Below are positions 26,621 through 63,318 of a stretch of DNA of 64,000 bases, piece after piece; position 1 is the stretch's first letter, and each line of letters begins with the position of its first letter. The notes beneath the pieces are model-generated. The model worked only from the letters and a program-made list of their open reading frames with translations, had not been told where the DNA came from and made no database searches. Location of the stretch: the sequence record KT454805, one strand, 5' to 3'. The translations under genes and the position numbers were made by a program. The DNA is from Escherichia phage phiSUSP1.

Positions 26621-26621
26621 A

Positions 26622-27117: not shown

Positions 27118-27118
27118 A

Positions 27119-27582: not shown

Positions 27583-27602
27583 ATTTGGCAGATTTTTTAT
27601 AA

Positions 27603-27753: not shown

Positions 27754-27816
27754 GAACCTTACTAAACCACACTTTACCTGACTGAACCCTACCAAACATC
27801 ACCATGCCAGACCAAA

Positions 27817-28003: not shown

Positions 28004-28022
28004 AGCCTCCGAAGAGGCTACC
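27993..28022 (-). terminator. intrinsic terminator for minus-strand gene 28031..28471
   Basis: on minus strand, hairpin AGCCTC-ttcg-GAGGCT followed by TTTTT. Confidence 0.6.
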
Positions 28023-28030
28023 TAGTCAAC

Positions 28031-28471: not shown

Positions 28472-28473
28472 AA

Positions 28474-29079
<606 letters not shown>

Positions 29080-29149
29080 TTAGTTGATTGTTAAGTTGTT
29101 TGTAAAGAACCCTCAACAGAAGACTCTTTAGAAACTTGGTAGATTTTTA

Positions 29150-29310
29150 ACGTGGCTACTACCATCCACCCACACCAGACCAAACCTAGCCTTACCCCAC
29201 CGCACCTTACCGAACCACACCTTACCATACATCACTTAAAAACCCTCTTAGAAGACTCTTAAGTGATGCTGGTGAGTACCCGTTGGTTTATGCTGCTCAG
29301 TATACTCACC
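29150..29310. repeat. regulatory repeat module copy 2: CA-rich tract + element A + B-like hairpin
   Basis: element A 29230..29265 is a perfect 36-bp copy; 8-bp stem hairpin GGTGAGTA...TACTCACC at 29271..29310; CA-rich tract 29150..29229 shares blocks with 27603..27673. Confidence 0.7.
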
Positions 29311-29322
29311 AAATTTTCTATG

Positions 29323-29511
29323 TCAACAACTTTCTAATAAAGTTTTATAAAGATTTTGCTTAACGACTCGCCTCACATGCCTATGCTCTTTCTTAATAAA
29401 GAGTGACCTCTTCTTGATAGAGCGCCTATTCTTGTAAGTGTTGCTAGGGTACTTATCGTGACCCGGACAACAACTGCCAGGATTTGTAAACTTGATAATC
29501 TCTCTTTTCAC
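29323..29511 (-). CDS. small basic ORF (62 aa), doubtful
   Basis: GTG start overlapping ligase stop by 1 nt; lysine/arginine-rich; may be non-coding leader. Confidence 0.2.
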   Translation of the reverse strand: MKREIIKFTNPGSCCPGHDKYPSNTYKNRRSIKKRSLFIKKEHRHVRRVVKQNLYKTLLESC

Positions 29512-30611: not shown

Positions 30612-30796
30612 TACATCTCCTTGCTCTTATCTAAGAATCTTGCACCGCAGCTATTACATTCATATAAACCTAATTTTGTGTTGTCAGGTTTATGAAAGCA
30701 ATTACACCCACATTTGCAAGAGAACTCACCACCAGCTACTGTGATTATGAACGTCTCAATGTTTCCGTCTTCAGTTCTTACAGGTTCTGTTTTCAT
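30611..30796 (-). CDS. small Cys-rich zinc-binding protein (61 aa)
   Basis: CKCGCNC ... CNSC. Confidence 0.35.
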   Translation of the reverse strand: MKTEPVRTEDGNIETFIITVAGGEFSCKCGCNCFHKPDNTKLGLYECNSCGARFLDKSKEM

Positions 30797-30999
30797 TTTC
30801 TCTTACCACCAATTTCTACATCAATAACCTGAACATCACCAGCAACATCAAACTTGTGAATGACATTTTCTACAGTGTAAGTCCAACCTTCAATATGAAC
30901 CCATTCACCTTCTCGTGGTACGATTGGATTACGTTGAGCCACCGTTGTAGTAGAATGAACAACATCATAACGGTAGATATAGTTTACTAAAACTTGCAT
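30793..30999 (-). CDS. hypothetical protein (68 aa)
   Basis: ORF track; overlapping start/stop. Confidence 0.35.
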   Translation of the reverse strand: MQVLVNYIYRYDVVHSTTTVAQRNPIVPREGEWVHIEGWTYTVENVIHKFDVAGDVQVIDVEIGGKRK

Positions 31000-31007
31000 A
31001 ATTTTCC

Positions 31008-31235
31008 TTAAAAGAATAAGTCAGAGGCTTTTGGAGAATCTTGCACAAGACCCCACTCAGATTTCTGCCAATCAAGGCCACGATACCATGAAGCCATCGG
31101 GTAACCCATTTCACAGACAATCTTTCCATCTTTCATTTCAAAGAACTCATCAGATGTGAAGTTCTCATTACGTACTTTCTTACCTTGCTTCATTGCTTCA
31201 ACAGCTTCTTCAAAAGTCATTTTTGGTTTCTCCAA
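31008..31235 (-). CDS. DUF2829-like small protein (possible Tad2-like Thoeris signal sponge)
   Basis: N-terminal motif MTFEEAVEAMKQGKKVR and C-terminal W-rich region recalled as DUF2829 family hallmarks; 70-75 aa. Confidence 0.4.
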   Translation of the reverse strand: MEKPKMTFEEAVEAMKQGKKVRNENFTSDEFFEMKDGKIVCEMGYPMASWYRGLDWQKSEWGLVQDSPKASDLFF

Positions 31236-31238
31236 TAC

Positions 31239-31451
31239 TTAAAAGTTAATGTCGATGCGTTCACCCTTAAGGACTCCAGTGCGGTCTCTTGCAATCTTAC
31301 CGTCAACAATAAGGATATGTGCAGCCCTTAAAGAGTCACGATTAAAACCTTTTACGAACTTACTAGGCATCACTACAATGAGCATCTCCTGAATCAACTC
31401 TGGAGTGTAGCAGTTGTCGTGAAGTTGTTGGATAACGTCTGAAAGTGTCAT
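31239..31451 (-). CDS. hypothetical protein (70 aa)
   Basis: ORF track. Confidence 0.35.
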   Translation of the reverse strand: MTLSDVIQQLHDNCYTPELIQEMLIVVMPSKFVKGFNRDSLRAAHILIVDGKIARDRTGVLKGERIDINF

Positions 31452-31502
31452 AAACCCTCCTATACAAGATACAGTATAAGGTACTCTTCCATGAGCACCT
31501 TG

Positions 31503-32030
31503 TCAACTTAGTTTTGCAAACTCTCCGTGAAGTTTCATAGAAGCTTCACAGTAAGCTTTATGGGCTTCTTCAGGGGTGTCATAGTAGCCTAATGACATCT
31601 TTTTACCTTTATAGCTTATTTGCGCAACCCACCTACCAGACTTCTTCTTCAGGCTTACACCCTTATAGCCTGATTTATTGGTGGATAGTTTGCTTTTATT
31701 CCAAGCACTTTGGCAGTCGTCTGCTTCTCTTAAGTTTACAATCCTGTTATCAAGGGAGTCCCCATTACTATGGTCAATAACACCTTTAGGTAACCTACCA
31801 TACACGTACAGCCATGCGAGTCTGTGCGCTTTATGTGCTTTCTTGTCAAAATAGATAGTAATCTGCTTATGACCAGTTGAGTCAATCTGGAGGCTTCCCG
31901 CTACCTGTCCTGCGTACTGGCTATTAAAAACTTTAACAGCCTTTGAGTCGCCCTCTCTACGAAGCCAAGTAAAGACCCCTATTTCGGGGTCATAGTGTAG
32001 TAGTTCCTTTAAACGTTCTTGTGTAATCAT
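31503..32030 (-). CDS. HNH homing endonuclease with AP2 DNA-binding domain
   Basis: HNH region IDHSNGDSLDNRIVNLREA; AP2-like GYKGVS...GRWVAQISYKGKKMSLGYYDTPEEAHKAY; paralogous to ORF 54234..54725. Confidence 0.8.
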   Translation of the reverse strand: MITQERLKELLHYDPEIGVFTWLRREGDSKAVKVFNSQYAGQVAGSLQIDSTGHKQITIYFDKKAHKAHRLAWLYVYGRLPKGVIDHSNGDSLDNRIVNLREADDCQSAWNKSKLSTNKSGYKGVSLKKKSGRWVAQISYKGKKMSLGYYDTPEEAHKAYCEASMKLHGEFAKLS

Positions 32031-32040
32031 TTTGTCACCA

Positions 32041-34740
32041 TTAATGCACTTCCAACCACGATTTACCGACCTTACCAGTACCAGTTACCAGTGTTTTACT
32101 CTTTAGTCCTAAGTTCTTAGAGGCTTGCCCGTAATACCAATCAGTGACAGCCTTCACCTCTGCCGTCATACTTTCTGGACATTCCCAACTTGTCTCATCG
32201 TGATAGGAGCACAATAAACGAGCACCTATAGCTGGTTTACGACCGTTCAACTTCATCAAACCTTCGTCAATCATACGACGGCAAGCAAGGTTAATTGCCT
32301 CGTTCTGAATCTGGCTTTCCGAACCCATGAGCAAGTAGTTCAACAGTTTGTGTGGAGACTTACACCACAACCATGCTCCAGCAACCTTGACAAAACCACC
32401 TTTAGCAATTGCAGCAGTCTTACCAAATACCTCTTCAAGTGCTTTCTTAGTTGCTTTAAAGTCAGCTTCCAAGTCATCTAACAGTTTCTTAATCTTCGGC
32501 AAACGCACAAAGTAAGTCTGTTTAGTCAATGCACCTTCCTGAGTAGTCGCAGCTTTAATCGTCTTAGCAAACTTCTCATCACCAGCACCAAACAGCAACG
32601 CATAGATGCCATTCTTAGCTTTCTTACGACCTTTACTAATTTCGTGAAGAAGATTTTCATCCTGAGTCATACGACAAGTCAAGATGTCTTGTTCTTCGTT
32701 CAAACTGAAGTAGATACTGTTCAGTGTATGAGCATCAGTGCCTGAGTAAACTACGTACAAATCGTTTTCAGAGTCATAACGCAGATACTTATCAACTTCT
32801 GGATTCAGGTATTCGTCAAAGTGTTTGCAGTAATATCTGCCATCTTCCTGACGGATAAACTCAATCTCTTCTTTACCTTGAGTTACCGCTTTGGTGAACT
32901 CTTTGTCACCCATAAAGTTACACAGCAAAACAAGCTGTGCAGAGTTCATGTCAACGGAAACTACGTTGGTTCCTTCTTCACAAATCCAGACTGCCCTCAT
33001 TGGTTCACCGTAAACAGCAGCCCCAGAAGGTACGTTCACAATCCCGTATTGTGTCATACGTCCAGTTGAAGTACCAAACACCATTGCACCAGCACTCAAA
33101 CGACCATCTGGACGAATCTGGTTTAACCAACCCTTTTCATCATCCTTTGAGTTCTCAATAGTCCTGCGTCGGTGCATCAAAGTGTAGTACTTCGCAATCT
33201 TCTGTCCAAGTTCACCTTCAATCGTATCATAAGATGATTCAGTCAGTTTCGGTGAAGTACGAATCAAGCAAGGCTCAAGCAAATCTGTGTACTTCTTCAC
33301 AGACCAGTTGTGTTCGATGTACTGTACACCTTCATGCTCAACATAGTTCAACCCGCAACGGTCTACCATCTCTTGCCATTTCGGATGTTTACGAATCATC
33401 TTCTTGTTGTCTTTGAAGCGACAAACCTTCACCGGACGACCATCAGAATCTTTCTTGTAGTTCCAGTCATCAGGAATCCAGCCAAGAGTTTTCAGATAAT
33501 CCTTCACAACCGCAACCTGAGTCATGCGTGAAACTTCAAACTCAATTGGTGTATAAGGTGCATCAATCAAACCTGTGTAACGACTTGACTCAAGTTCGAA
33601 GTGGTTTACTACGTGATTGTTGTAGTACTTCACAGTCTTCACAGTCTTAACTGGTTTCCAGTCTTTGCACTTCTTATCAATCGCAGCATTCAACTCGTTA
33701 CAAACTGCACGAGCATCTTTCATTGCCACGAAACCTTCTTTGTACTCTTCTCCAGTAACCGTGTTAGTTGGAGTGTAGCAGTTACGCTTCTCAATGTTGA
33801 AAATCTTGGTAGTTGGTTTACCAAAAGGTTTGATAGCGTAAGTCTGCATCTCACCATTACGAACCTGCTGACGGAACTTAGTTTTTGGATACTTAGTGAT
33901 GCGCTTCAGACCATCTGCTTCACCAAATGTCTCAACGTACTCGTTCCAAGCTTTTGCAAACTCTTCACCAGTGACTTTACCTTTCGTCTTAATAGTCGGT
34001 GGCAGATGAGGCTCAACTTCAGCAGCTAATTCATCAGTCATTCTGTCAAGTTCTTTGACATGGAACTGCATAAGTTCAATATCAGCTTTCCAACCGTTGA
34101 TAGCTTGCTGACTCATCCAGAAAGATGTTTCTTTAGCTCGCATGTAGGTTTCGTAAGTGTCTACACCACACTTCTTCAACTTCAGGTATTCATTATCAAG
34201 AGCACGTTTAGCTTTGGCGTTGATTCGAATATCCTCAACAACACGGTTCAGAATGTCAGCATTCCAGACACCCCACTCTTCAATCTCTGGCTTACGAACA
34301 CCAACACGAGCACCCCATGCAGCCAAACCATGAGCACCTTTGTAACCTTTCGGTGTAGGTCTATCCATCCACTGAACACGAGACTGGATAAGAGAATCCT
34401 GAAAGAAGTCTCCCCAAGGTTTACACTTCGGATTATCAAAGTTCCATAAGTCTGGTGCAATGTGGTTAAACACCCACCAGTCATAGCCAAGACCGTTATG
34501 AATGCAGAGACGTTTTGCCTTAAGAGCAAACTCCACACCTTCACGAAGACCACCTTTGATGTACTTAGTACACTTGTGACCAAGGATAGGTTCATCGGTG
34601 AAGACCCACACAGCAGGTTCGTCACTGTCATCTTTGTAATCTGCAAATGCCATTACGTGTGCTTTTGTGAACTCAAGGAGTAACCCATCAGTTTCGGTAT
34701 CACCTACCAAGTGCAAGTTTTCAAAATCTACGTTTTCCAT
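32041..34740 (-). CDS. DNA polymerase, family A (T7 gp5-like) with 3'-5' exonuclease domain
   Basis: Exo I motif VGDTETDGL at N-terminus; 899 aa. Confidence 0.85.
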   Translation of the reverse strand: MENVDFENLHLVGDTETDGLLLEFTKAHVMAFADYKDDSDEPAVWVFTDEPILGHKCTKYIKGGLREGVEFALKAKRLCIHNGLGYDWWVFNHIAPDLWNFDNPKCKPWGDFFQDSLIQSRVQWMDRPTPKGYKGAHGLAAWGARVGVRKPEIEEWGVWNADILNRVVEDIRINAKAKRALDNEYLKLKKCGVDTYETYMRAKETSFWMSQQAINGWKADIELMQFHVKELDRMTDELAAEVEPHLPPTIKTKGKVTGEEFAKAWNEYVETFGEADGLKRITKYPKTKFRQQVRNGEMQTYAIKPFGKPTTKIFNIEKRNCYTPTNTVTGEEYKEGFVAMKDARAVCNELNAAIDKKCKDWKPVKTVKTVKYYNNHVVNHFELESSRYTGLIDAPYTPIEFEVSRMTQVAVVKDYLKTLGWIPDDWNYKKDSDGRPVKVCRFKDNKKMIRKHPKWQEMVDRCGLNYVEHEGVQYIEHNWSVKKYTDLLEPCLIRTSPKLTESSYDTIEGELGQKIAKYYTLMHRRRTIENSKDDEKGWLNQIRPDGRLSAGAMVFGTSTGRMTQYGIVNVPSGAAVYGEPMRAVWICEEGTNVVSVDMNSAQLVLLCNFMGDKEFTKAVTQGKEEIEFIRQEDGRYYCKHFDEYLNPEVDKYLRYDSENDLYVVYSGTDAHTLNSIYFSLNEEQDILTCRMTQDENLLHEISKGRKKAKNGIYALLFGAGDEKFAKTIKAATTQEGALTKQTYFVRLPKIKKLLDDLEADFKATKKALEEVFGKTAAIAKGGFVKVAGAWLWCKSPHKLLNYLLMGSESQIQNEAINLACRRMIDEGLMKLNGRKPAIGARLLCSYHDETSWECPESMTAEVKAVTDWYYGQASKNLGLKSKTLVTGTGKVGKSWLEVH

Positions 34741-47664: not shown

Positions 47665-47857
47665 ACGTTTATGGGATGGTTTTGTTGAAGATGCACCGAT
47701 GATTGCTCTTGCATTCATGGTTATCAGTATGTTTACTGATTTAAAACAAGGTGTCCTCTTCGGAGCTATGCTAGTATGGGTTATCTTTGAGATACTGGAT
47801 ATTCAGCATGACTTAAGCGGAAAACTTAAAAAGCTTATTGAAAAGTTTTCTAAGTAG
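47657..47857 (+). CDS. small membrane protein (66 aa)
   Basis: two hydrophobic segments (MIALAFMVISMF, FGAMLVWVIFEIL). Confidence 0.3.
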   Translation: MLKRLWDGFVEDAPMIALAFMVISMFTDLKQGVLFGAMLVWVIFEILDIQHDLSGKLKKLIEKFSK

Positions 47858-47866
47858 ATTTAATAT

Positions 47867-47892
47867 AAGGGTCTCTTCGGAGACCTTTTTTG
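47867..47892 (+). terminator. intrinsic terminator (UUCG tetraloop)
   Basis: AAGGGTCTC-ttcg-GAGACCTT followed by TTTTTT. Confidence 0.75.
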
Positions 47893-52182: not shown

Positions 52183-52494
52183 ATGGAAAAGATTTATAAC
52201 ACCCGTAAAATTCAGATTGCAATTCTGTGCCAATTCATGGCTGATAAACATGATTCACACTATTGCGGTACAGGTTTTCTTACTCTAGGTGGTGGGTATG
52301 TCAGCTTCAAAGAGGCTGTGAAGATGTACAATGAACATCCTGAAGATGATAAAGAGTTGAAGCAACTGAAGCTTACCTATGATAAGAAACGTAAGAAAAT
52401 TATATGCTTGAACAACCTTATCAAGCCAACTGAAAACGTTCATGATTCAATTGGCGAAGAAGGTTTCTTCAAAGTCTTGAAATTGGCTCAGTAA
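52183..52494 (+). CDS. hypothetical protein (103 aa)
   Basis: ORF track. Confidence 0.35.
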   Translation: MEKIYNTRKIQIAILCQFMADKHDSHYCGTGFLTLGGGYVSFKEAVKMYNEHPEDDKELKQLKLTYDKKRKKIICLNNLIKPTENVHDSIGEEGFFKVLKLAQ

Positions 52495-52506
52495 GAGTAT
52501 ATGATT

Positions 52507-52531
52507 AGGGAACTGTAAAAGGTTCCCTTTT
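52507..52531 (+). terminator. intrinsic terminator
   Basis: GGGAAC-tgtaaaa-GGTTCCC followed by TTTTT. Confidence 0.7.
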
Positions 52532-53062: not shown

Positions 53063-53333
53063 AGAACAATGGGAAATCAAAGAACTCATTAGTGAAGCTG
53101 GAAATGGTAGTGAGATGTATATGATACGTGGTCACGTCCCAGATGCACTTGCTATTGAAATGATTGACCACTACTCCAACGGATTCTATAAAGAATTTGG
53201 AGAGCCAAATATTGAACGTACTTGGACAAAACCAGTACCAGATGGAACAGGGAACTGTTCAGTTATCTATCACATTGTAGACCCAAAGAAATGTAAGTCA
53301 GCTATGGCTGTAACATTTGTAACTTTTGACTGA
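53055..53333 (+). CDS. hypothetical protein (about 92 aa)
   Basis: in-frame ATG at 53055 within ORF 53028..53333. Confidence 0.3.
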   Translation: MAREQWEIKELISEAGNGSEMYMIRGHVPDALAIEMIDHYSNGFYKEFGEPNIERTWTKPVPDGTGNCSVIYHIVDPKKCKSAMAVTFVTFD

Positions 53334-53343
53334 GAGAAATATT

Positions 53344-54225
53344 ATGAAAACTATTATTCAAGTCCTGATTAATTCAAACTCTAAAGGCACTCACCAAGAG
53401 AACTTCAACATTATCCAGTTCCCTTCAGGAGAAATTGGTGGTAACTTCTCAGAAGATTTGGTAGACTTTGTTGAACATGCTGCTGGTAAGATTGATAACG
53501 TAATCTTCACGGTACAAGGCTATGATAAAGATACACTCTTTGCATTAGCTCTGGCTAAAGAAGCAATTGACCGTATGATTCCTCAGAAAGCAGCTATGAA
53601 GACTGTTGTCTTTGGTTTCTTACCAAATGCTAGATATGACCGTCACATGTTTAAAGGTGATGCAGCAGCACTTAAAGCATTTGCAAATCTTGTAAACGCT
53701 ATGGAGTTTGATGCAATTTGTGCTCTGGATGCTCATAGTAACGTGGCAGAGAATCTATTTAAGTGCTTCTACAACCTACCTCAAAAAGAGGCAGCAGTAC
53801 ACTTTGCAAGTGACCCACGAATTGATTACTTAGTGGCTCCAGATGCAGGTGCAGCTAAGAAGACTGAAGAAGCTGCTAAGGATGTTGAGAAGCCTTATAT
53901 CACAATGGCTAAGGTGCGTAACCTGAAAACTGGTGAAATCACTGGTATGCGAATCCTTGATGACGTAGATTTAACAGGCAAGACTGTCATGATTCTGGAT
54001 GATATCTGTGACGGTGGTCGTACCTTCATTGAGGCTGCAAAGTATCTTCGTGAAGCTGGTGCAGAACGTGTAGAACTGTATGTCACTCATGGGATTTTCT
54101 CTAAAGGTGTTGAAAATCTTCTTGACAACGGTATTGACCATATCTACACTACAAACTCACTAGGCGATGTAGAAGACCGTGGACTTTCACACTTCTCACA
54201 AGTGACTGTAGCAAACATTGAATAG
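53344..54225 (+). CDS. ribose-phosphate pyrophosphokinase family protein (Prs-like; possible ADPR-PP synthetase)
   Basis: Prs blocks ALDAHS, YLVAPDAGAAKK and PRTase loop VMILDDICDGGRT...YVTHGIFS; ORF track start 53326 is TTG, ATG at 53344 more likely. Confidence 0.65.
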   Translation: MKTIIQVLINSNSKGTHQENFNIIQFPSGEIGGNFSEDLVDFVEHAAGKIDNVIFTVQGYDKDTLFALALAKEAIDRMIPQKAAMKTVVFGFLPNARYDRHMFKGDAAALKAFANLVNAMEFDAICALDAHSNVAENLFKCFYNLPQKEAAVHFASDPRIDYLVAPDAGAAKKTEEAAKDVEKPYITMAKVRNLKTGEITGMRILDDVDLTGKTVMILDDICDGGRTFIEAAKYLREAGAERVELYVTHGIFSKGVENLLDNGIDHIYTTNSLGDVEDRGLSHFSQVTVANIE

Positions 54226-54233: not shown

Positions 54234-54725
54234 ATGGATAAGGGTTACTTTGAAAAATACCTAAGATACGAACCAGAGACAGGTTTGTTAATTTGGAAAG
54301 TAACCCTTTGTAGCACCGCTATTGCTGGTAATGTGGCTGGCACAAGGTCTAAGAAGGGTTATATCCAAGTTCAGATAAACAAGAAGAGGTACTATGCACA
54401 CAATATCGCATGGATTCTATCTGGAGGTGAGATACCAAGTGGATATGAGATAGACCACATAGACCTTGACAAGACAAATAATAAGTTGGAAAACTTAAGA
54501 CTGAGTACAAAGTCACAAAACCAAAGAAATAGAGGTATACAAAAGAACAACAAAACTGGCGTGAAGGGTGTAAGTGTATGTACACAGACAGGTCTTTATA
54601 AAGCAAGAGTGATGCTTTATCATAAAGAATACTTTTGCGGAAGATTTAAAACGCTAGAAGAAGCGAAAGAAGCTGTAATTAAAAAACGATTAGAACTTCA
54701 TGGTAAGTTTGCAAGACATAACTAA
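54234..54725 (+). CDS. HNH homing endonuclease with AP2 domain
   Basis: HNH region IDHIDLDKTNNKLENLRLS; AP2-like GVKGVS...GLYKARVMLYHKEYFCGRFKTLEEAKEA; paralog of 31503..32030. Confidence 0.8.
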   Translation: MDKGYFEKYLRYEPETGLLIWKVTLCSTAIAGNVAGTRSKKGYIQVQINKKRYYAHNIAWILSGGEIPSGYEIDHIDLDKTNNKLENLRLSTKSQNQRNRGIQKNNKTGVKGVSVCTQTGLYKARVMLYHKEYFCGRFKTLEEAKEAVIKKRLELHGKFARHN

Positions 54726-54741: not shown

Positions 54742-56559
54742 ATGAGTAAATCACTTTACGCAGTACCAGCAGGTCTTAATGCAGATGCTTACAAGTCATC
54801 ACACATCTACCAGTATCCAGATGCTACTCAGTATCTTATGCTGAATTTAACGCCTCGTGGAGACAAATGGTTTAACTCTCCATTAGAAATTGATGGTGTT
54901 GTAGCATTTGGTATTCAGCGTTTTGTAAAAGACTATCTGGTAGACCACTGGAATGCAACGTTCTTTGAACGTGATAAGAAAGAAGCCATTGACGAAATCT
55001 TGGAAATCATGAATGGTGTACTTGGTGCAGATGCCATTGGTCGTCAACATTGGGAAGAACTTCATGACTTAGGTTATCTGCCTGTTGAAGTCTACTCTGT
55101 AGAGGAAGGTACAATTGTCCCTATGCGTGTCCCGATGATTATATTCAAAAACACTGTAGAGGGCTTCCATTGGGTAGCTGGTTATCTCGAAGATGCTTTC
55201 TCTGCTGAAATCTGGAAAGCTTGTACAATTGCAACTATTGCACTACATTACAAACGTATTTGTAAGAAGTGGTCAGATTTGACCTGTGATAACGACTTCC
55301 ATCTTCCTTGGCAGTGTCATGACTTTGCAATGCGTGGTATGTCTGGATTCACAGATGATGCGTTTAACGCAGTAGGTCACCTGACAAGTTTTAAAGGTAC
55401 TGACAGCTTCCCTGCTGTATACACAGCTAAACGTGCATATGGTCAGTTTATGACTGTAAGTGATATCGGGAACTCTGTACCAGCAACTGAACACTCTGTG
55501 ATGTGTGCAAACATCTCATGGAATAGTTGTGCCAAAGAAGTAAGTGATTGGCATCTGCTACAGTCTGACAACTTGTTAGATGCAATGCGTTGGCGTGGTG
55601 AGGTAGAAACTTTCCAACGTCTTCTGACAGAAGTCTACCCAACTGGTATTGCAAGTGTTGTATCAGATACTTACAACTTCTGGAGAACTGTTACACAGAT
55701 TTTACCAGAGCTACGTAATGTGATTCTGAATCGTGATGGTAAGTTGGTAATCCGTCCAGACTCTGGAGACCCTGTTCACATTGTCACTGGTTACAAAGTC
55801 ATTGAATGGGAAACTGCTAAGTCAATGTTCTATAAGCACATGAAAGGTCTTGCACCAGATAACACCCACCTGCATGATGCAATCTTGAATTGTGAAATGG
55901 CTGATATTGGCTTTGGATTATCTGCTTGGCTAATCTCTGAAGGTTATGAGATGGTTGTTGAAAATGAAGATTTTGATTATATTGATACAATCAACCTGAT
56001 TACTGCTCAGAAAACTGGACAGTTTACTGTGAAGCGTATGTTAACAGCAGAAATTGATGGAGCTATCCACACGCTGTATAACATCTTTGGTGGTACTGTT
56101 AACTCCAAAGGGTACAAAGTACTGGATGAGCACATTGGACTAATCTACGGTGATTCTATCACTTTGGAAAGGGCTAATGAGATTCTATCACGTCTTGCTG
56201 ATAAAGGTTTTGCAAGTTCTAACGTAGTGTTTGGTGTAGGTTCATACACCTATCAGTACCTGACTCGTGATACCTTTGCATTTGCTGTTAAAGCAACTCT
56301 TGCACAGATGGACGGTCAAGAAATCATGCTGGCTAAAGACCCTAAAACAGATAGTGGTCTGAAGAAATCTGCTTTTGGTGGAGTCATCCCTATGTGGGAC
56401 GGTGATAAGCTGGAAGCTGTAGATGGTTTTGGTTTTGCAGAGTTTGAAGGTGCAATTGAGAATTGTCAGAGCGCTTTGAAACTGGTATTTAGCAACTCAC
56501 AACCTTATGGTTATGTTAATCTACGTGATGTACGAAATACTATTGACAAGCAACTTTAA
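54742..56559 (+). CDS. nicotinamide phosphoribosyltransferase family protein (Nampt/NadV-like)
   Basis: blocks match Nampt from memory: DAYKSSHIYQYP, HDFAMRGMSGFTDDAFNAVGHLTSFKGTDS, VPATEHS, VVSDTYNFW, LVIRPDSGDPV. Confidence 0.8.
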   Translation: MSKSLYAVPAGLNADAYKSSHIYQYPDATQYLMLNLTPRGDKWFNSPLEIDGVVAFGIQRFVKDYLVDHWNATFFERDKKEAIDEILEIMNGVLGADAIGRQHWEELHDLGYLPVEVYSVEEGTIVPMRVPMIIFKNTVEGFHWVAGYLEDAFSAEIWKACTIATIALHYKRICKKWSDLTCDNDFHLPWQCHDFAMRGMSGFTDDAFNAVGHLTSFKGTDSFPAVYTAKRAYGQFMTVSDIGNSVPATEHSVMCANISWNSCAKEVSDWHLLQSDNLLDAMRWRGEVETFQRLLTEVYPTGIASVVSDTYNFWRTVTQILPELRNVILNRDGKLVIRPDSGDPVHIVTGYKVIEWETAKSMFYKHMKGLAPDNTHLHDAILNCEMADIGFGLSAWLISEGYEMVVENEDFDYIDTINLITAQKTGQFTVKRMLTAEIDGAIHTLYNIFGGTVNSKGYKVLDEHIGLIYGDSITLERANEILSRLADKGFASSNVVFGVGSYTYQYLTRDTFAFAVKATLAQMDGQEIMLAKDPKTDSGLKKSAFGGVIPMWDGDKLEAVDGFGFAEFEGAIENCQSALKLVFSNSQPYGYVNLRDVRNTIDKQL

Positions 56560-56571
56560 AACAGTATGATA

Positions 56572-56596
56572 AGAGGCTCCTACGGGAGCCTTTTTA
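56572..56596 (+). terminator. intrinsic terminator
   Basis: GAGGCTCC-tacg-GGAGCCT followed by TTTTT; identical to the hairpin at 62766. Confidence 0.75.
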
Positions 56597-56612
56597 ATTT
56601 GTGGAGAATGTT

Positions 56613-56828
56613 ATGAGATTTAACACTGATTTATTTTATACAGATAGTACTGGATTCTTTGGTGGATACTGTGTAGCATCTTGGCAGTTATGGTTCTCAG
56701 AAGACTACAGAGATGATATGCAGGTTTTTGTAGATGATTACAAGTTCCCTACAAAACCCACTAAACGTCAGATTAGAAAGCTTCGCAGAGAGTTTCGTAA
56801 AACTTGCAAAGGGATTAATAGACTATGA
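56613..56828 (+). CDS. hypothetical protein (about 71 aa)
   Basis: in-frame ATG at 56613 within ORF 56601..56828. Confidence 0.3.
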   Translation: MRFNTDLFYTDSTGFFGGYCVASWQLWFSEDYRDDMQVFVDDYKFPTKPTKRQIRKLRREFRKTCKGINRL

Positions 56829-57160
56829 AAATTAAACAGATGAATGTCAATGTAATCATTGAAGAACGTTGGGAAAATATTCAGCGACCTGAAGATGGTC
56901 ACAAGTTTATCAACGAACTGTTTCAAGCAGCACAGTCAGAGTTAGCTTCTGAGATTTATACAACGGTCACTTTGAAGGTTTACATCAAAGGTCTGCCACA
57001 AAATCACCAAGAGGCACTTGATTTGTTCCAAAAAGGATTCTACAATCCAAATAAAGATATACTTGAGAACAGTTTTGCAGTATCTTCGAGTATTGTTCAT
57101 GACAGAAGTTTTGTCCTATTCAGAACTGTAGGAGATAAGGTATGCAAAGTTATTGGTTAG
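56825..57160 (+). CDS. hypothetical protein (111 aa)
   Basis: ORF track; coupled start. Confidence 0.35.
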   Translation: MKIKQMNVNVIIEERWENIQRPEDGHKFINELFQAAQSELASEIYTTVTLKVYIKGLPQNHQEALDLFQKGFYNPNKDILENSFAVSSSIVHDRSFVLFRTVGDKVCKVIG

Positions 57161-57321
57161 AACTTGTACTGTCACTCGGTTGCATTGTTGCTATTGCAGT
57201 GATACTATGCAGATACTTCTCAGAGACAGAACCTTGTGATGAGTGTGAAGGCTCTGATATAGCTGGTATGGGGCATTGTTGCCCTTACTGTAACGGAACT
57301 GGAAAGAAATTTAAAAAGTAA
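57142..57321 (+). CDS. small membrane protein with C-terminal Cys cluster (59 aa), not in ORF track
   Basis: ATG at 57142 after GGAGATAAGG; translation MQSYWLELVLSLGCIVAIAVILCRYFSETEPCDECEGSDIAGMGHCCPYCNGTGKKFKK. Confidence 0.3.
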   Translation: MQSYWLELVLSLGCIVAIAVILCRYFSETEPCDECEGSDIAGMGHCCPYCNGTGKKFKK

Positions 57322-57322: not shown

Positions 57323-57359
57323 TTGACAGTGGCATCTATAAAATTATATAGTTTGCCAC
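57323..57359 (+). promoter_or_regulatory. sigma70-like promoter (TTGACA, about 16-17-nt spacer, TATATA) inside a GTGGCA...TGCCAC palindrome
   Basis: hexamers read directly; 6-bp inverted repeat at 57329..57334 and 57354..57359; upstream of rIIA-like gene. Confidence 0.5.
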
Positions 57360-57383
57360 ATCAACCACTAAGGAGATATTCTT

Positions 57384-59756
57384 ATGCGCATGGTAAATGA
57401 CCACGCAACTGTAATTAAAAGCTCAAGTACACTGGAAACCTCTCAGGCTCAGATTAAGATGACACCTGAAATGTTCAGTCTCCTAAGCTCAGGTGTTTAC
57501 ACATACAAAGAACGTGCTGTTATTCGTGAGTTATCATGTAACGCAGTAGATGCTCACATTGATTCTGGTAATGTTGATAAACCTTTCTTGGTTCACTTAC
57601 CAACTCGTTTTGAACCTTTCTTTGAAGTTCGTGATTTTGGTACAGGTCTGACTCATGATAAAGTTATGAAGCTTTACATGACCTATGGAGAATCTACAAA
57701 GAATGATTCGAACGACTACATCGGTGCTATGGGTATCGGCTCAAAGTCACCATTTGCAATTGCTCAGTCATTTACTGTGTCAAGCTATGTTGATGGTGTA
57801 GTTAATAAATACTCAGTTTATCTTGAGAATGGTATTCCTCAAGTGACTAAGTTGACTACTAACCCAACTACCGAACCAAATGGTTTAGCTGTTCGCGTAG
57901 CAGTATCTGACAACCGTATTAATAAGTTCCATGAAGAAGCAAGTAATGTTTACTCATACTTCAAAGTGAAACCAGAATGCAACGTTGAGTACTACGACAT
58001 TCTTGAAGCGATGACTTCCATCTCTCGTGAAGATGGTATCTATGATGCAATGAAGTACAAAGAAAACTGGCGTTCAAATAGTAACAGTGTACATTTCAAT
58101 GTAATCATGGGTAATATTGCTTATCCTGTTGAAATGGGTGAACTGCTTGGTTCAGAGTTTACAAGTATTCTGCCTCAGTTCTTCCGTAGTGCTGTAGACC
58201 TTGTTAATATCTACATGCCAATCGGTTCAGTGGCTATCGCTGCATCTCGTGAAGCATTGCAGATGAATGAGACCACTAAGACAAAGATTGTTGAAGCTGT
58301 GAAGAAAATCACTAAGACAATAGTTGAAGATGTGGTAAAAGAGATTGCTAATAAGCCAACTCTGATTGATGCTGCACAAGCTTATGACACCATGAGGAAA
58401 GAGGCTCGTGAAATCTTTAATCACGTCCAAGATTCTCTGGAGTGGCAAGGTCAGAACTTGAAAAAGCTTGAACAAAAGCTGTTGGGTATTCGTCGTGGTC
58501 AGTTAACTGAAGCAGATGGTTCTCCATCATTCTTGAAAGATGATGCAGGTAACTTAAGGCTTGACAAAGACGGTAATCCAGTTCCTAATATTGGTAATCT
58601 GTATGAACCTGTAGCGTATTACAAGTACAGCAGTCTGGAGAATCGTATTCGAGCAACTTCAGCAACATATTCACAAGATGCTGCAATGTTCAGTATCTTT
58701 GGTGCAATGAGTAAAGATAAGTTGAGCAACTACTTGTTCCTTATCAATGACCGTCGAAACAAGAACGGGTCTGAAAAGACGACTGGTAAAAATCAGATTA
58801 TCCGTGGAGCTTGCCGTGACCGTGAACAGGAAGATTCTAACTTCCGTCGCTATAATGGTATTGCTTTCTTGTTCAGCAGTCAGCAGCAATTTGATGAGTT
58901 TGTAGCTTTGCATATGCTTGACAAGAATCTGTTAAGTGTGCATACAATGTCAGCTAAAGAGCACCACTATGAGAAACGTACCATTGTACGTGGTGTAGTG
59001 AAACTGTACAAAGCATACTTCAGCCCTGCAACTGGAAGGGTTCTTTATACGGAAGTTAAAGAAAACTTTGATGAGATTGAAGAACCACAACTATATATCA
59101 AAGCACAGAGTGATGAAGTTCTGGGTGGTATCTTCTCATGCTCACCAGAACGTGCTGCAACGTTGATGACAGAACTAACTGGACAACCAGTTTATGTCTT
59201 CCGTAAAGCAAACTGGAAAAAGATTCCTGAAGATTGGGCTGAAGTCAATGCACAGGTGATGAAAGATTTTATTGAGAATACTCACTGGATTGAGTATCAT
59301 CGATACTTGACGTATCAGTATATGACTGATAAGCATGATATTACAGACTGTAATGTTGTTGCTCGTAACTTCAACTTTGCTGGTAAGAAGAAGTCAAGAG
59401 GTCATGTATATAACAAAGACTTTGATTCAACAATCCTGTTAGAAGGGAACGAAGACGCTGTAGAAGCAATGTTTGGTCGCTTGGCATACACTGCTGCACC
59501 GATTGCTTATAAAGAAGTCTACAGCACTCTTGACACTCTTCGCAGGAATATGAGAGGCTCTTGTAAGCCAAGAAAGATTCTGGACAATGCTAAGAAGCGT
59601 CTTGAAAGCAAGTTCAAAGATTACTTTGAGAAACGCCGTAAAGAAAACTTCTTGCTTTCTAATCTGGATTGGAATAAAGTGTCACCTGTTGAAGTTGGTA
59701 GGTTCTTAGGATTTGACGTTAGAGGTCTTCCAGAAGATACCAACTGTTGGGAATAA
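57384..59756 (+). CDS. rIIA: rIIA-like protein with N-terminal GHKL ATPase domain
   Basis: Bergerat-fold motifs ELSCNAVDA (N box), DFGTGL (G1), GAMGIGSKS (G2); 790 aa; followed by rIIB-sized gene. Confidence 0.5.
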   Translation: MRMVNDHATVIKSSSTLETSQAQIKMTPEMFSLLSSGVYTYKERAVIRELSCNAVDAHIDSGNVDKPFLVHLPTRFEPFFEVRDFGTGLTHDKVMKLYMTYGESTKNDSNDYIGAMGIGSKSPFAIAQSFTVSSYVDGVVNKYSVYLENGIPQVTKLTTNPTTEPNGLAVRVAVSDNRINKFHEEASNVYSYFKVKPECNVEYYDILEAMTSISREDGIYDAMKYKENWRSNSNSVHFNVIMGNIAYPVEMGELLGSEFTSILPQFFRSAVDLVNIYMPIGSVAIAASREALQMNETTKTKIVEAVKKITKTIVEDVVKEIANKPTLIDAAQAYDTMRKEAREIFNHVQDSLEWQGQNLKKLEQKLLGIRRGQLTEADGSPSFLKDDAGNLRLDKDGNPVPNIGNLYEPVAYYKYSSLENRIRATSATYSQDAAMFSIFGAMSKDKLSNYLFLINDRRNKNGSEKTTGKNQIIRGACRDREQEDSNFRRYNGIAFLFSSQQQFDEFVALHMLDKNLLSVHTMSAKEHHYEKRTIVRGVVKLYKAYFSPATGRVLYTEVKENFDEIEEPQLYIKAQSDEVLGGIFSCSPERAATLMTELTGQPVYVFRKANWKKIPEDWAEVNAQVMKDFIENTHWIEYHRYLTYQYMTDKHDITDCNVVARNFNFAGKKKSRGHVYNKDFDSTILLEGNEDAVEAMFGRLAYTAAPIAYKEVYSTLDTLRRNMRGSCKPRKILDNAKKRLESKFKDYFEKRRKENFLLSNLDWNKVSPVEVGRFLGFDVRGLPEDTNCWE

Positions 59757-59762
59757 AATAGT

Positions 59763-59791
59763 TTGACAGGGGCTGAAAAGCCCCTTAGAAT
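59763..59791 (+). promoter_or_regulatory. sigma70-like promoter (TTGACA, 17-nt spacer, TAGAAT) with GAAA-loop hairpin in the spacer
   Basis: spacer is GGGGCT-gaaa-AGCCCC. Confidence 0.5.
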
Positions 59792-59834
59792 ACGAACCAC
59801 TAAGTAACTTTAAACAACAAAGAGAGATATTAAG

Positions 59835-60956
59835 ATGACTACTAAGACTAAAGCACAAATCGACGCAGAAATCTACGCACTGGTTAAAGAAGGTAAACTG
59901 ACCAAAACTGCAATTGCTCTGAAGTACAATACTTCAACTCGTTCTGTAGGTCGTGCTGTAGAGCGTCATGAAGCAACTCTGCTGACAGGGAAAACCAAAG
60001 CAAAACCTGCAAAGACCCTGAAAGATATTGCAAAGGGTGCTAAGAAAGCTAAAGCAACTAAAAAGGTAGCTACCCAGAAACCTATTGCAAAAGCTGTTAA
60101 AGAGGCAGCCAAAGCAGAACCTGTAAATGCTCTGCACGAAGCGATGCAGAATAACAGCCAGATTGAGTACATGATTACTGGTGACTCGGTTATCATGACT
60201 TTCGGTGCAGAGTCAGAGATTGTTGAGTCAACTCACCCTAACTACACTGAAATTGTTATGGCTGTTGTATCAGGTGAGTACAAGAAAGCCTTTGAACTGA
60301 TGAACATTCGCAAATCCATTGAGAACTTCACTCAGGGTGCTGTGACCATTAAAGGTGATAACCTGTACTACGGTGCTGTTCAAATGCGTTCAACTCTGGT
60401 AGACCGTATTCTGGACATGATGAAGAAAGGCGATGAAGGCTTTACCCGTCTTATTGCATTCTTCGAAAAACTGATGGAAAACCCATCAAAAGATTCTGTA
60501 GAACAACTTTGGGGCTTTGTGTCACACCTCGATGTTGAAATTGATGAAGAAGGTTATATCATCGGTTGGAAGAAAGTCACAACTCGTAGTGGTAAACTGT
60601 TTGACTCTCGTACCTGCAAAGTGCCAAACGATTTGGGTAACATTGTTGAAATGCCACGTTGGATGGTTGATAATAACCGCCATGTAACATGCTCTCAAGG
60701 TCTACATGTTGGTGCTTGGGATTACGTAACTAGCTTCTCTGGTGACACTATCCTGAAAGTTCGTGTTCACCCTCGTGATGTTGTTTCAGTACCAACTGAC
60801 TACAACGATATGAAGATGCGAGCCTCTCGTTATGAAGTTGCAGCGATTGTAAATAGTCGCCGTGAAGTCATCAAAGAGTGGGATGGTTCAGAAGCACTCC
60901 ACGTAGTTGTAGGAACTGCTGGTGAACTGATTTCTCAGCGTAAACGTGAAGTCTAA
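59835..60956 (+). CDS. rIIB: rIIB-like protein (putative)
   Basis: 373 aa ORF directly downstream of the rIIA-like gene; no independent motif. Confidence 0.35.
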   Translation: MTTKTKAQIDAEIYALVKEGKLTKTAIALKYNTSTRSVGRAVERHEATLLTGKTKAKPAKTLKDIAKGAKKAKATKKVATQKPIAKAVKEAAKAEPVNALHEAMQNNSQIEYMITGDSVIMTFGAESEIVESTHPNYTEIVMAVVSGEYKKAFELMNIRKSIENFTQGAVTIKGDNLYYGAVQMRSTLVDRILDMMKKGDEGFTRLIAFFEKLMENPSKDSVEQLWGFVSHLDVEIDEEGYIIGWKKVTTRSGKLFDSRTCKVPNDLGNIVEMPRWMVDNNRHVTCSQGLHVGAWDYVTSFSGDTILKVRVHPRDVVSVPTDYNDMKMRASRYEVAAIVNSRREVIKEWDGSEALHVVVGTAGELISQRKREV

Positions 60957-60972: not shown

Positions 60973-60997
60973 TGGGCTGCTTCGGCAGCCTTTTTTA
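60973..60997 (+). terminator. intrinsic terminator (UUCG tetraloop)
   Basis: GGCTGC-ttcg-GCAGCC followed by TTTTTT. Confidence 0.75.
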
Positions 60998-60998
60998 T

Positions 60999-61026
60999 TT
61001 GAAAAATGTGCAGGATGATGTATAAT
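60999..61026 (+). promoter_or_regulatory. strong sigma70-like promoter (TTGAAA, 16-nt spacer, TATAAT)
   Basis: hexamers read directly; sits between the terminator and the transglycosylase gene. Confidence 0.6.
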
Positions 61027-61057
61027 TGTCTGCATGTTTAACAAAATAGGAGTGCAA

Positions 61058-61606
61058 ATGAAGAAATTTGTTTTAGGTTTGTGCTTATTCTTTACAGCAC
61101 ATTTAGCTACAGCATCTGACTGTCCAGAACTTACAATCAGCCAGAAAGTAAATATGTTAAAAGCATATAACTATGGCGAAGGACAGATGGGAAAAGGTTG
61201 GGGAATCCCTTTAGCAGCTATAGCCTTACAAGAGTCACAATTAGGTGTCATGTTAGAAAATAAAAGGACTCATGATTATGGTGTTTTCCAGAATCACTTG
61301 AAGACTGTTGTAAAGCGTAACAAAGTATCTCCAAAGGTTGCTAAGAAGAAGTTGGTAAGTGACTTCCATTACTCAGCAAAAGAGGCTCATAAAGAGTTGC
61401 TATTCTGGACAAAGGTTCACGGTAACCCAGATGGAAAGTACTCTATGAAGCGTGTCCTAGCTTCTTATAATGCTGGTTACAAATATAAGATTCCAAAGGC
61501 TAGACAATACTCTCAAGATGTGTACAATAACATGAAACTGCTTGCTCAATGTGAGTTTGCAACAAACATTAAAAAGGTAAAATATGAGCGAATCAAAACA
61601 ATTTGA
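61058..61606 (+). CDS. secreted lytic transglycosylase (SLT-domain, signal peptide)
   Basis: signal peptide MKKFVLGLCLFFTAHLATA; SLT-like motifs AIALQESQLG, GVFQ, ASYNAG; AGGAG RBS. Confidence 0.55.
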   Translation: MKKFVLGLCLFFTAHLATASDCPELTISQKVNMLKAYNYGEGQMGKGWGIPLAAIALQESQLGVMLENKRTHDYGVFQNHLKTVVKRNKVSPKVAKKKLVSDFHYSAKEAHKELLFWTKVHGNPDGKYSMKRVLASYNAGYKYKIPKARQYSQDVYNNMKLLAQCEFATNIKKVKYERIKTI

Positions 61607-62290: not shown

Positions 62291-62755
62291 ATGCAAAACA
62301 TTATTACAGTAGCTATCGATGCTTCCGGTAACAAATCACAGGTAGTTCGTGAGATTATCAAGAATAACTTCGATGGTAAAATCTTTCGTGCAGTAAACGT
62401 GAAAGCTGATGGTAACATTCGTGAGTATCGTGCAATGTTGAATGTAACAAAACACGTTAAAGGTGTTGGCTCAACAACTGCACATAAAGAAAATCTGATG
62501 ACTATCTATGATATGGGTATGGCTTCAGAGTTAGGTGCAAAAGGTATTATACAATCCGGTGCTCCTTACCGTTCTTTCAATCTGGAAACTGCTCTTATGC
62601 TTTCCTTTACAAGTGGTTCTCAAACTACCACTTACCTCTTCACAGACTCTGCAACGGTGTCTGCGATTAAGGATAATACCATTAAGGCTGGCGTAGCTGC
62701 TGCTTCAAAAGCCTCAACAATGGCAGCAAATGTCCTTGCGAAAGTTCTTGGTTAA
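62291..62755 (+). CDS. hypothetical protein (154 aa)
   Basis: ORF track; good RBS. Confidence 0.4.
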   Translation: MQNIITVAIDASGNKSQVVREIIKNNFDGKIFRAVNVKADGNIREYRAMLNVTKHVKGVGSTTAHKENLMTIYDMGMASELGAKGIIQSGAPYRSFNLETALMLSFTSGSQTTTYLFTDSATVSAIKDNTIKAGVAAASKASTMAANVLAKVLG

Positions 62756-62765
62756 AGTTATTATA

Positions 62766-62790
62766 GAGGCTCCTACGGGAGCCTTTTTCA
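62766..62790 (+). terminator. intrinsic terminator
   Basis: GAGGCTCC-tacg-GGAGCCT followed by TTTTT. Confidence 0.75.
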
Positions 62791-62807: not shown

Positions 62808-63155
62808 ATGACATTTAAAGAATTTTGTCAAGCAGCTTTTGTAATCATTTTCTTAATAGGTGTTGGTGCTTGGGGAGGTTACACTTACAAGACCAGCCAA
62901 GTTAATGAAAAGGAGTTAACTAACCAGAGACTTGTAAGTGTTGCTAAAGATGCTTATCAAGAAGGTTTATCAAATCTTAGCTCCAATTACAAAAATGATT
63001 TGAAAGATGTGCTTGCTAAAAACAAACACACAAAAGAGGTATTGAATTATGAAAAAACTAAGACAGTCTTTATTAATGATTGTGCTACTGAGCCTTATGT
63101 CAGGGTGTTCAACGAACAAAGTGAACAGTACCTTCAAAAACTCCCAAGTAAGTGA
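62808..63155 (+). CDS. i-spanin (Rz-like)
   Basis: N-terminal TM segment FVIIFLIGVGAWGGY then charged helical periplasmic region; o-spanin gene embedded at its 3' end. Confidence 0.5.
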   Translation: MTFKEFCQAAFVIIFLIGVGAWGGYTYKTSQVNEKELTNQRLVSVAKDAYQEGLSNLSSNYKNDLKDVLAKNKHTKEVLNYEKTKTVFINDCATEPYVRVFNEQSEQYLQKLPSK

Positions 63156-63318
63156 GAGTGACAAGTATACTCAAGAGGAAGCACGATATGAAGTCAAAAG
63201 CACTAAAGGTAAAGATATTGCAAGTGCTCTTGAGTTTTATCGTGACGGCTACTATGAGTGTACTATCAAGGCAAACAACTTGATTGATATGATTTTGTTA
63301 GGGAATAAGCAGCAATGA
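63049..63318 (+). CDS. o-spanin (Rz1-like outer-membrane lipoprotein)
   Basis: lipoprotein signal MKKLRQSLLMIVLLSLMSGC (lipobox LMSGC); starts inside the i-spanin gene in another frame and extends past its stop. Confidence 0.55.
   Translation: MKKLRQSLLMIVLLSLMSGCSTNKVNSTFKNSQVSESDKYTQEEARYEVKSTKGKDIASALEFYRDGYYECTIKANNLIDMILLGNKQQ

Follow-up and report, generated by a model that had tools for sequence, protein, structure and literature searches.

How the rII proteins of phages neutralise abortive-infection systems is a question of mechanism that is about 70 years old. Knockdown of RIIA/RIIB in SUSP1, T4, N4, MM02 and EdH4 lowers the plating efficiency only on hosts that carry RexAB (PMC11879866). 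Deletion of the rIIA/B genes g84/g85 from Bas63, a Felixounavirus, lowers it by 1e4–1e5 on hosts with qatABCD, and the defect is complemented (bioRxiv 10.1101/2024.10.10.617714). Where no defence system is present, plating is unaffected by rII knockdown or deletion (PMC11879866; HIDEN-SEQ preprint). The literature on T4, T6, SUSP1 and Bas63 describes RIIB both as a counter-defence protein (RexAB, Qat) and as a trigger of CARD-gasdermin systems. Recognition of rIIA and rIIB in Felix O1-like phages dates from the Felix O1 genome paper.

The locus described here lies within a 64-kb window, the whole stretch of DNA analysed. It belongs to a Mooglevirus (Ounavirinae, Felix O1-like) genome, and its two genes are very probably orthologous to T4 rIIA and rIIB and serve in counter-defence. 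By analogy with the relatives in the literature, the two genes would be needed on RexAB and QatABCD hosts and otherwise dispensable. They would form an early-expressed, conditionally essential pair that keeps abortive-infection systems such as lambda RexAB and QatABCD from destroying the host cell while phage development is still under way. Members of the same genus and subfamily have proved to be Rex- and Qat-dependent (PMC11879866; bioRxiv 10.1101/2024.10.10.617714), and the test on Rex+ hosts proposed in an earlier note on this DNA has a published counterpart in the knockdown of SUSP1, a phage now placed in the same genus (PMC11879866). The result for the window mainly confirms routine annotation, since close relatives carry the annotation and experiments on related phages exist.

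Identity and genomic setting of the pair

The two reading frames have exactly the positions and lengths that the earlier note gave them (Table 1), and its reading of them as rIIA and rIIB is borne out by PHROG families common to the T4 proteins and by direct BLASTP. In the profile search that it had called for, the 790-aa protein matches RIIA (phrog_612) over its full length, with aa 1–768 on profile positions 1–712 of 725 (E 3.6e-184), and the 373-aa protein matches RIIB (phrog_609, C-terminal part; E 6.3e-86). Judged as sequence similarities, these E-values put both matches well outside chance. The same two families are the best PHROG matches of T4 rIIA and rIIB (NP_049616, NP_049889), T4 rIIA reaching an E-value of 9e-250 on phrog_612. 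In BLASTP the 790-aa protein is 32% identical to T4 rIIA over aa 1–317 (E 7e-40), and the 373-aa protein, until then of rIIB size only, is 40% identical to T4 rIIB over 277 aa (E 2e-61). Public data contain proteins about 94–98% identical to the window's rIIA, rIIA is annotated in the records of HP1, Mordin and Sf13, and the rIIB homologues have the precomputed domain PF26926. The two proteins are assigned as rIIA and rIIB because of this PHROG and BLASTP homology to T4, together with the annotated relatives.

At the nucleotide level the locus is 92–95.5% identical to Mooglevirus records, and the genome is about 95% identical to records with rIIA/rIIB annotated. Felix O1 ORF1/ORF2 and the rIIA/rIIB genes of Mordin, Moogle, Sf13, HP1, EP1 and SUSP1/2 form an orthologous locus, and Felix O1, Mooglevirus and Suspvirus have in common the order prs, (HNH), nadV, small ORFs, rIIA, rIIB, an SLT-like gene, pnk and spanins. 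Suspvirus was represented by EP1 and SUSP2; SUSP1 stands in the current NCBI taxonomy as Mooglevirus susp1. The rIIA protein of EP1, an annotated Suspvirus, is 73% identical to the window's; for rIIB the figure is 86% with EP1 and 82% with Felix O1. These loci differ from that of the window at strain or species level only: the rIIB promoter and its hairpin are the same in Felix O1-like relatives, HP1 has no HNH endonuclease between prs and nadV, and the rIIA-proximal promoter is absent from Felixounavirus. In the window rIIB starts 79 nt downstream of rIIA on the same strand; rIIB likewise comes after rIIA in phages of the T4-like, N4-like and Felix O1-like groups. The pair adjoins the gene for an SLT-like secreted protein, and the spanin genes lie 1.8 kb downstream; no tRNAs are found within the 64 kb.

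The likeness to T4 is uneven along both proteins. Every motif residue of the N-terminal GHKL module (32% identity) is conserved in T4 rIIA, whereas the C-terminal 460 aa are without pairwise similarity. The rIIB cores are 40% identical and both proteins have an N-terminal HTH-like segment, but the window's rIIB is 61 aa longer, mostly through its Lys/Ala-rich linker. Unlike those of T4, the window genes are preceded by sigma70-type promoters with embedded hairpins, and their genome context is Felix O1-like, not T-even.

Table 1. Features of the rIIA–rIIB locus, in window coordinates.
Feature	Position	Strand	Details
rIIA-proximal sigma70-like promoter	57323..57359	+	TTGACA 57323-57328, 18-nt spacer, TATAGT 57347-57352; 11/12 match
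Shine-Dalgarno AAGGAG	57370..57375	+	8 nt upstream of rIIA ATG; direct reading
rIIA	57384..59756	+	790 aa; ORF listing and phrog_612 match
rIIA N-terminal GHKL ATPase and transducer-like second domain	57492..58373	+	~aa 37-330
rIIA N box	57528-57554	+	within GHKL domain
rIIA G1	57633-57650	+	within GHKL domain
rIIA G2	57723-57749	+	within GHKL domain
rIIA invariant S288-R289-E290	58245-58253	+	within aa ~37-330
rIIA C-terminal region	58374..59753	+	~aa 331-790; lineage-variable, confidently modelled
rIIB promoter	59763..59791	+	TTGACA 59763-59768, 17-nt spacer, TAGAAT 59786-59791; 11/12 match
rIIB	59835..60956	+	373 aa; ORF listing and phrog_609 match
rIIB N-terminal helix-turn-helix domain	59835..59987	+	aa 1-51
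rIIB Lys/Ala-rich disordered linker	59994..60116	+	aa 54-94; pLDDT <50
rIIB conserved core	60132..60953	+	~aa 100-373
Intrinsic terminator after rIIB	60974..60999	+	GGGCTGC-TTCG-GCAGCC(T), then T run

Architecture of the two proteins

The motifs and the predicted fold indicate that rIIA carries a catalytically intact two-domain GHKL ATPase. The N box, G1 and G2, picked out in the earlier note as Bergerat-fold signatures, are intact and invariant across 26 homologues including T4 rIIA; the alignment used for structure prediction was built without the T4 sequence. Earlier descriptions of this GHKL domain exist, in print (PMC7824862) and as a note in the GenBank record of phage Mordin. A PDB sequence search with rIIA returned no match, and none of the solved-structure matches listed is attributable to the C-terminal region (~aa 331–790). 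The protein has no transmembrane segment, its most hydrophobic 19-mer scoring ≤1.43.

It is highly improbable that the 790-aa protein is some other GHKL enzyme in place of rIIA, be it a type II topoisomerase ATPase subunit, a MutL-like or MORC-like protein or an Hsp90-type chaperone. The family matches that point in this direction cover the generic N-terminal module only and fall far under their cut-offs, with 43.5 bits against 455 for the Hsp90 equivalog and 25.2 against 50 for the sacsin domain. No type II topoisomerase profile (GyrB, ParE, gp39) scores above cut-off, MutL and MORC families do not match, and Hsp90 stays below its curated threshold; neither a TOPRIM domain nor a topoisomerase-specific C-terminal region, a MutL C-terminal domain or any other family-specific domain was detected in the protein. 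Its best full-length match is RIIA, which it has in common with T4 rIIA, and rIIB comes next after the gene, as in the three groups of phages named above. The second GHKL role (topoisomerase or MORC-like) that the earlier note had kept in reserve thus fails, there being a generic two-domain fold and no family cut-off reached, and the profile search did not give topoisomerase or MutL matches instead of rIIA. Sequence identity between rIIA and Hsp90/TRAP1, MORC2/3, SMCHD1, topo II/IV/VI-B or MutL is only 10–18%, and the C-terminal half of rIIA has no relation to these proteins. In the predicted model, rIIA resembles DNA-clamp GHKLs no more closely than it does the chaperone Hsp90.

rIIB combines three parts of differing conservation. 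The predicted fold of its N-terminal helix-turn-helix (HTH) resembles the HTH domains of sigma region 4, DeoR and LuxR. The linker differs among homologues in length and sequence; in the window's protein 56% of aa 51–100 are K or A. Invariant in the core are F209, N216, G240, K246, R275, V278, C286, G289, L290, H291, Y297, P313, V317, P320, D322, K327, R329 and Y333, and T4 rIIB and the window's rIIB have 19 invariant core columns in common. The HTH is missing from 7 of 30 rIIB homologues while the C-terminal core is invariant, and DNA binding therefore cannot be the universal core activity. As modelled, the core is without a solved structural relative: neither a PDB sequence search with rIIB nor Foldseek with its model against the PDB (E ≤0.001) gave a match. 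Weak Foldseek matches to CNFy and PAXX (probability ≤0.2) were disregarded as fold relatives. There is no transmembrane segment in rIIB (most hydrophobic 19-mer ≤0.78).

Promoters, hairpins and terminator

Each of the two genes has its own predicted near-consensus sigma70 promoter. In that of rIIA, an inverted repeat (GTGGCA at 57329–57334, TGCCAC at 57354–57359) brackets the -10 box, and the hairpin it forms has a folding energy of -14 kcal/mol (z about -4 to -5). The repeat is retained in four lineages by differing sequences, the arms in the other three being GAGGTA/TACCTC, CTATACAG/CTGTATAG and TGCAGAG/(C)CTGCA. Protein operators were judged the less likely explanation of such promoter-overlapping repeats, the arms changing wholly, by compensatory substitutions, between close lineages.

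The hairpin-containing promoter that the earlier note had seen between the two reading frames is real. A GC hairpin, GGGGCT-GAAA-AGCCCC (59769–59784), sits within the spacer of the rIIB promoter, with a folding energy of -14.6 kcal/mol and a z of -4.0; not one of 200 shuffles folds as well. Across the sampled Ounavirinae its stem is invariant or nearly so, and loop and flanks vary. Distant Erwinia phages keep a hairpin at the rIIB position with no promoter around it. At 20480–20495 of the window an identical stem is followed by TTTT and makes an ordinary terminator. The copy in the rIIB spacer was rejected as a canonical intrinsic terminator, having no T run and not being called by the terminator scan, and is best read as a weakened or overprinted one. 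It belongs to a design of overlapping promoters and terminators that recurs in the phage's early region, where further hairpins assigned to it stand at 47867, 52507, 56571 and 62765. This design offers a simple answer to the question, left open in the Felix O1 genome paper, of how transcription passes through many terminators, and it may help the annotation of Ounavirinae early regions. The terminator that follows rIIB corresponds to one annotated in Mordin, and its Felix O1 counterpart is t2 (PMC3185647); the next promoter starts at 60999.

How the pair may act

A tentative mechanism, possible but doubtful, has an rIIA clamp recruited to DNA by rIIB, where a defence cue is masked or remodelled. 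rIIA would dimerise and work as an ATP-driven clamp, as do the proteins nearest to it in fold (MORC, SMCHD1, MutL, topo II and Hsp90). Through its HTH and Lys/Ala tail, rIIB would recruit rIIA to phage DNA or to DNA–protein intermediates; the complex on the DNA would mask or remodel the cue that the defence sensors detect, and the membrane-depolarising effector would never be triggered. About equally possible is the classical alternative to the clamp, in which both rII proteins are peripheral at the inner membrane. In classical work on T4, membrane fractions contained the rII proteins.

That the pair is a DNA-associated, ATP-driven clamp complex and no membrane device is unlikely. rIIA would then be a MORC-, MutL- or topo-like GHKL dimer targeted to phage DNA by the sigma4-like HTH and H1-like Lys/Ala tail of rIIB, and the rIIB core (C286, H291, D322, K246, R275, K327, R329) would carry some binding or catalytic activity. 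If so, the masking of intermediates of replication or recombination would account for the action of a single pair against RexAB as well as QatABCD; the clamp would apply to all rII systems and not specifically to the window locus. The models suggest concrete mutants: the two domains of the GHKL module are intact, few polar residues of the rIIB core are invariant, and transmembrane segments are absent.

The names under which the proteins are filed point elsewhere. In PHROG and RefSeq both families go by 'lysis inhibitor', and a note in the T4 record reads 'membrane integrity protector'; with the spanin genes 1.8 kb downstream and the SLT-like secreted protein alongside, these names would fit proteins that act directly at the inner membrane on lysis timing or membrane energisation, counter-defence being a side effect. 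This is rather unlikely: transmembrane and strongly hydrophobic segments are absent from both proteins, their GHKL ATPase and HTH are domains usual in cytoplasmic machines that handle nucleic acids or act as chaperones, and loss of the genes is without plating phenotype where there is no defence system (PMC11879866; HIDEN-SEQ preprint). Iyer et al. (2021) suggested that rIIB is mainly a phage transcription factor, which would repress phage genes in response to the state of the host, with rIIA as its ATP-dependent partner. The N-terminus that folds like the HTH of sigma region 4, DeoR and LuxR agrees with this, as does the classing of rIIB as a specific transcription factor (PMC7824862), and the conserved inverted repeats over the rIIA and rIIB promoters could be its operators. 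Such a role is nonetheless improbable as the main one, the HTH being dispensed with in 7 of 30 homologues in which the C-terminal core is kept. Moreover, close lineages with a near-identical rIIB HTH have rIIA-promoter repeats of wholly different sequence, a pattern that fits a nucleic-acid hairpin, not a protein operator.

The rIIA/rIIB pair and its relatives

The rIIA/rIIB-like pair proposed in the earlier note is confirmed: both open reading frames match its coordinates and lengths exactly, and the PHROG profiles identify them as RIIA and RIIB. The rIIA product matches phrog_612 (RIIA) with an E-value of 3.6e-184, aa 1-768 aligning with profile positions 1-712 of 725, and the rIIB product matches phrog_609 (RIIB) with an E-value of 6.3e-86. 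The same profiles are the best matches of T4's rIIA and rIIB, and direct BLASTP against the T4 proteins gives 32% identity over aa 1-317 for rIIA (E 7e-40) and 40% over 277 residues for rIIB (E 2e-61).

DNA identity is 95.5% to Salmonella phage S.Kent 1-2-1, 95.4% to Citrobacter phage HP1 and 92% to Mordin and the Shigella Sf13-19 phages, all of the genus Mooglevirus (Ounavirinae); SUSP1 is Mooglevirus susp1 in current NCBI taxonomy. The window's proteins are 73% (rIIA) and 86% (rIIB) identical to those of EP1, the Suspvirus representative. Annotated records among the Mooglevirus relatives already name these genes rIIA and rIIB, and in Felix O1 ORF1 is rIIA and ORF2 rIIB (PMC3185647). The pair is an already known and annotated locus, and nothing about it as a pair is new.

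Profile phrog_609, labelled 'RIIB lysis inhibitor', is a composite of 1055 positions, of which ~20-313 are matched by rIIA proteins and ~751-1049 by rIIB proteins; its source, then, is either fused rIIA-rIIB proteins or a merged cluster, and it can give rIIA a wrong RIIB label. The whole window holds no tRNA genes, compared with 22 in Felix O1.

Features of the rII region and of the putative promoter/terminator overlaps
Feature	Coordinates	Strand	Detail
rIIA ORF	57384..59756	+	790 aa
rIIB ORF	59835..60956	+	373 aa
rIIA promoter	57323-57352	+	TTGACA-18-TATAGT
rIIA Shine-Dalgarno	8 nt upstream of ATG	+	AAGGAG
rIIB promoter	59763-59791	+	TTGACA-17-TAGAAT
Terminator 3' of rIIB	60974-60991	+	annotated in Mordin; t2 in Felix O1 (PMC3185647)
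Promoter/terminator overlap	47838-47888	+	hairpin 47867
Promoter/terminator overlap	52477-52528	+	hairpin 52507
Promoter/terminator overlap	56543-56594	+	hairpin 56571
Promoter/terminator overlap	62736-62786	+	hairpin 62765
prs	53326-54225		ribose-phosphate pyrophosphokinase
HNH homing endonuclease	54234-54725		phrog_99, E 7e-68
nadV/NAMPT	54742-56559
75-aa ORF	56601-56828		phrog_2375
59-aa ORF	57142-57321		phrog_3931
SLT-like secreted protein	61034-61606		phrog_600
i-spanin	62808-63155
o-spanin	63049-63318

Protein architecture and probable counter-defence role

The structural additions are small: (i) a predicted two-domain GHKL architecture in rIIA, (ii) an rIIB core without a solved relative, and (iii) the lack of transmembrane segments. 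The ATPase motifs quoted for rIIA are present as ELSCNAVDA (aa 49-57), DFGTGL (aa 84-89) and GAMGIGSKS (aa 114-122). In an alignment of 26 homologues including T4 rIIA, the invariant residues are E49, N53 and D56 of the N box, D84 and G86 of G1, G114, G117, G119, K121 and S122 of G2, and an extra block, S288-R289-E290. Pfam HATPase_c_3 barely exceeds its gathering score on aa 45-163 (26.1 bits against 25), and Mordin's record already notes a histidine-kinase-like ATPase domain.

The AlphaFold model of rIIA (mean pLDDT 84.2) resembles two-domain GHKL ATPases over 230-315 residues, with structure-comparison scores of 15.4 for TRAP1/Hsp90, 15.0 for SMCHD1, 14.5 for the T6 topoisomerase II ATPase, 14.2 and 14.1 for MORC2 and MORC3, 13.8 for ParE, 13.7 for Topo VI-B and 12.6 for MutL; histidine-kinase CA domains score at most 7. 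These matches point to an ATPase-plus-transducer module of the two-domain GHKL class and single out no one family. The topoisomerase or MORC-like role that the earlier note had entertained finds no support, the rIIA sequence matching none of the topoisomerase, MutL or MORC families in the family profile search. The Hsp90 and sacsin matches were rejected: they are confined to the ATP-binding region and score far under the cut-offs (43.5 bits against 455, and 25.2 against 50). The C-terminal 460 residues are poorly conserved and confidently modelled, with no attributable solved-structure match among the matches listed.

The rIIB model (mean pLDDT 85.1) has three parts: an N-terminal helix-turn-helix domain (aa 1-51), a disordered linker (aa 54-94, pLDDT <50) and a core of ~aa 100-373. 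Lys or Ala makes up 56% of aa 51-100. Across 30 aligned homologues the core retains 18-19 invariant residues (F209, N216, G240, K246, R275, V278, C286, G289, L290, H291, Y297, P313, V317, P320, D322, K327, R329 and Y333). The helix-turn-helix is wholly missing in seven of the 30, so it is the core that defines the rIIB family.

The Rex- and Qat-dependence of rIIA/rIIB has been tested already in relatives. HIDEN-SEQ found T4 rIIA and rIIB again conditionally essential on RexAB, and deletion of g85 or g84, the RIIA/B homologues of Bas63 (Felixounavirus), lowers plating on qatABCD by 1e4-1e5, a defect rescued by complementation (bioRxiv 10.1101/2024.10.10.617714). T6 RIIB is by itself enough to trigger a bacterial CARD-gasdermin system (PMC10312443). 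By analogy, the pair in the window most likely serves in counter-defence, being dispensable on naive hosts.

How the pair might act is a more doubtful matter. In the hypothesis we prefer, held tentatively, rIIA would be an ATP-driven clamp, directed by the helix-turn-helix and basic tail of rIIB to phage DNA or DNA-protein intermediates, and the two proteins would hide a cue read by defence sensors. About equally possible is the classical view that rII proteins act peripherally at the membrane; by 19-residue Kyte-Doolittle means, neither protein has a membrane-span-like hydrophobic stretch (maxima 1.43 in rIIA and 0.78 in rIIB).

Promoters and hairpins

Five sigma70 consensus sites with at most one mismatch occur in the 64-kb window, four of them at 56.5-61 kb. 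The hairpin-containing promoter described before rIIB holds up: GGGGCT-GAAA-AGCCCC lies wholly inside the promoter spacer. Its stem changes little or not at all among the Mooglevirus, Suspvirus and Felixounavirus sequences sampled, while loop and flanks vary; in two distant Erwinia phages, whose rIIA is 34% identical, a GC hairpin still separates the two genes, without the surrounding promoter; and at 20480-20499 GGGGCT-TTTT-AGCCCC followed by TTTT forms an ordinary terminator with an identical stem (20480-20495). From these comparisons we read the rIIB element as a putative terminator or attenuator stem, its U-tract overprinted by the -10 box.

In the rIIA promoter (57323-57359) the -10 box is flanked by an inverted repeat. 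The repeat persists in four Mooglevirus/Suspvirus lineages (the window and the relatives' loci L011, L013 and L029) with arms of entirely different sequence and fold z-scores of -4.9, -5.7, -4.8 and -2.1. Judged from sequence, the changed arms are compensatory evolution, which makes a nucleic-acid hairpin likelier than a protein operator. In Felixounavirus the promoter is missing here, and rIIA comes directly after the upstream ORF.

As a side observation, of the 12 terminator-like hairpins on the plus strand, four are preceded by a sigma70-like site, its -10 stopping 1-2 nt short of the stem, against ~0.04 expected by chance from site density. A transcript begun ~7 nt past the -10, inside the 5' arm, would lack that arm and escape the terminator, and RNA reading through from upstream would stop at the same hairpin. 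This hypothetical design may explain transcription past many terminators in Felix O1-like phages; how transcription passes them was stated to be unknown in the Felix O1 paper, whose listing lacks these promoters (PMC3185647). Elsewhere, negative GC skew (to -0.23) over ~10 kb (24000-34000) marks a minus-strand block; the sole strong minus-strand promoter lies at 29326.

Neighbouring genes

Upstream, prs and nadV form an NAD+ reconstitution pair. Their Bas63 counterparts, g79 and g80, act against Sir2-HerA, which places the rII genes in an anti-defence neighbourhood. The HNH homing endonuclease between them is found in Moogle, Mijalis and Felix O1, and is absent from HP1, otherwise the closest annotated relative. 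The 75-aa ORF is called 'DNA polymerase' in the HP1 record (HP1_105 in L002), probably a mis-annotation; its only matches are to unknown-function families. The 59-aa ORF directly upstream of rIIA, also of an unknown-function family, combines a single strongly hydrophobic helix (KD 2.5) with a zinc-finger-like tail, CxxC...CxxCxGxG, and its C-terminus is conserved upstream of rIIA in Felixounavirus too.

Just 3' of rIIB, the SLT-like protein (a weak Pfam SLT match) has been labelled 'putative lysin', 'T4 vs-regB intergenic 20.7 kD protein' and 'RegB-like'. Translation probably begins at the second Met, 61058, because a promoter lies at 60999-61026. Further downstream, the o-spanin is partly embedded in the i-spanin in another frame, as annotated in Mordin.
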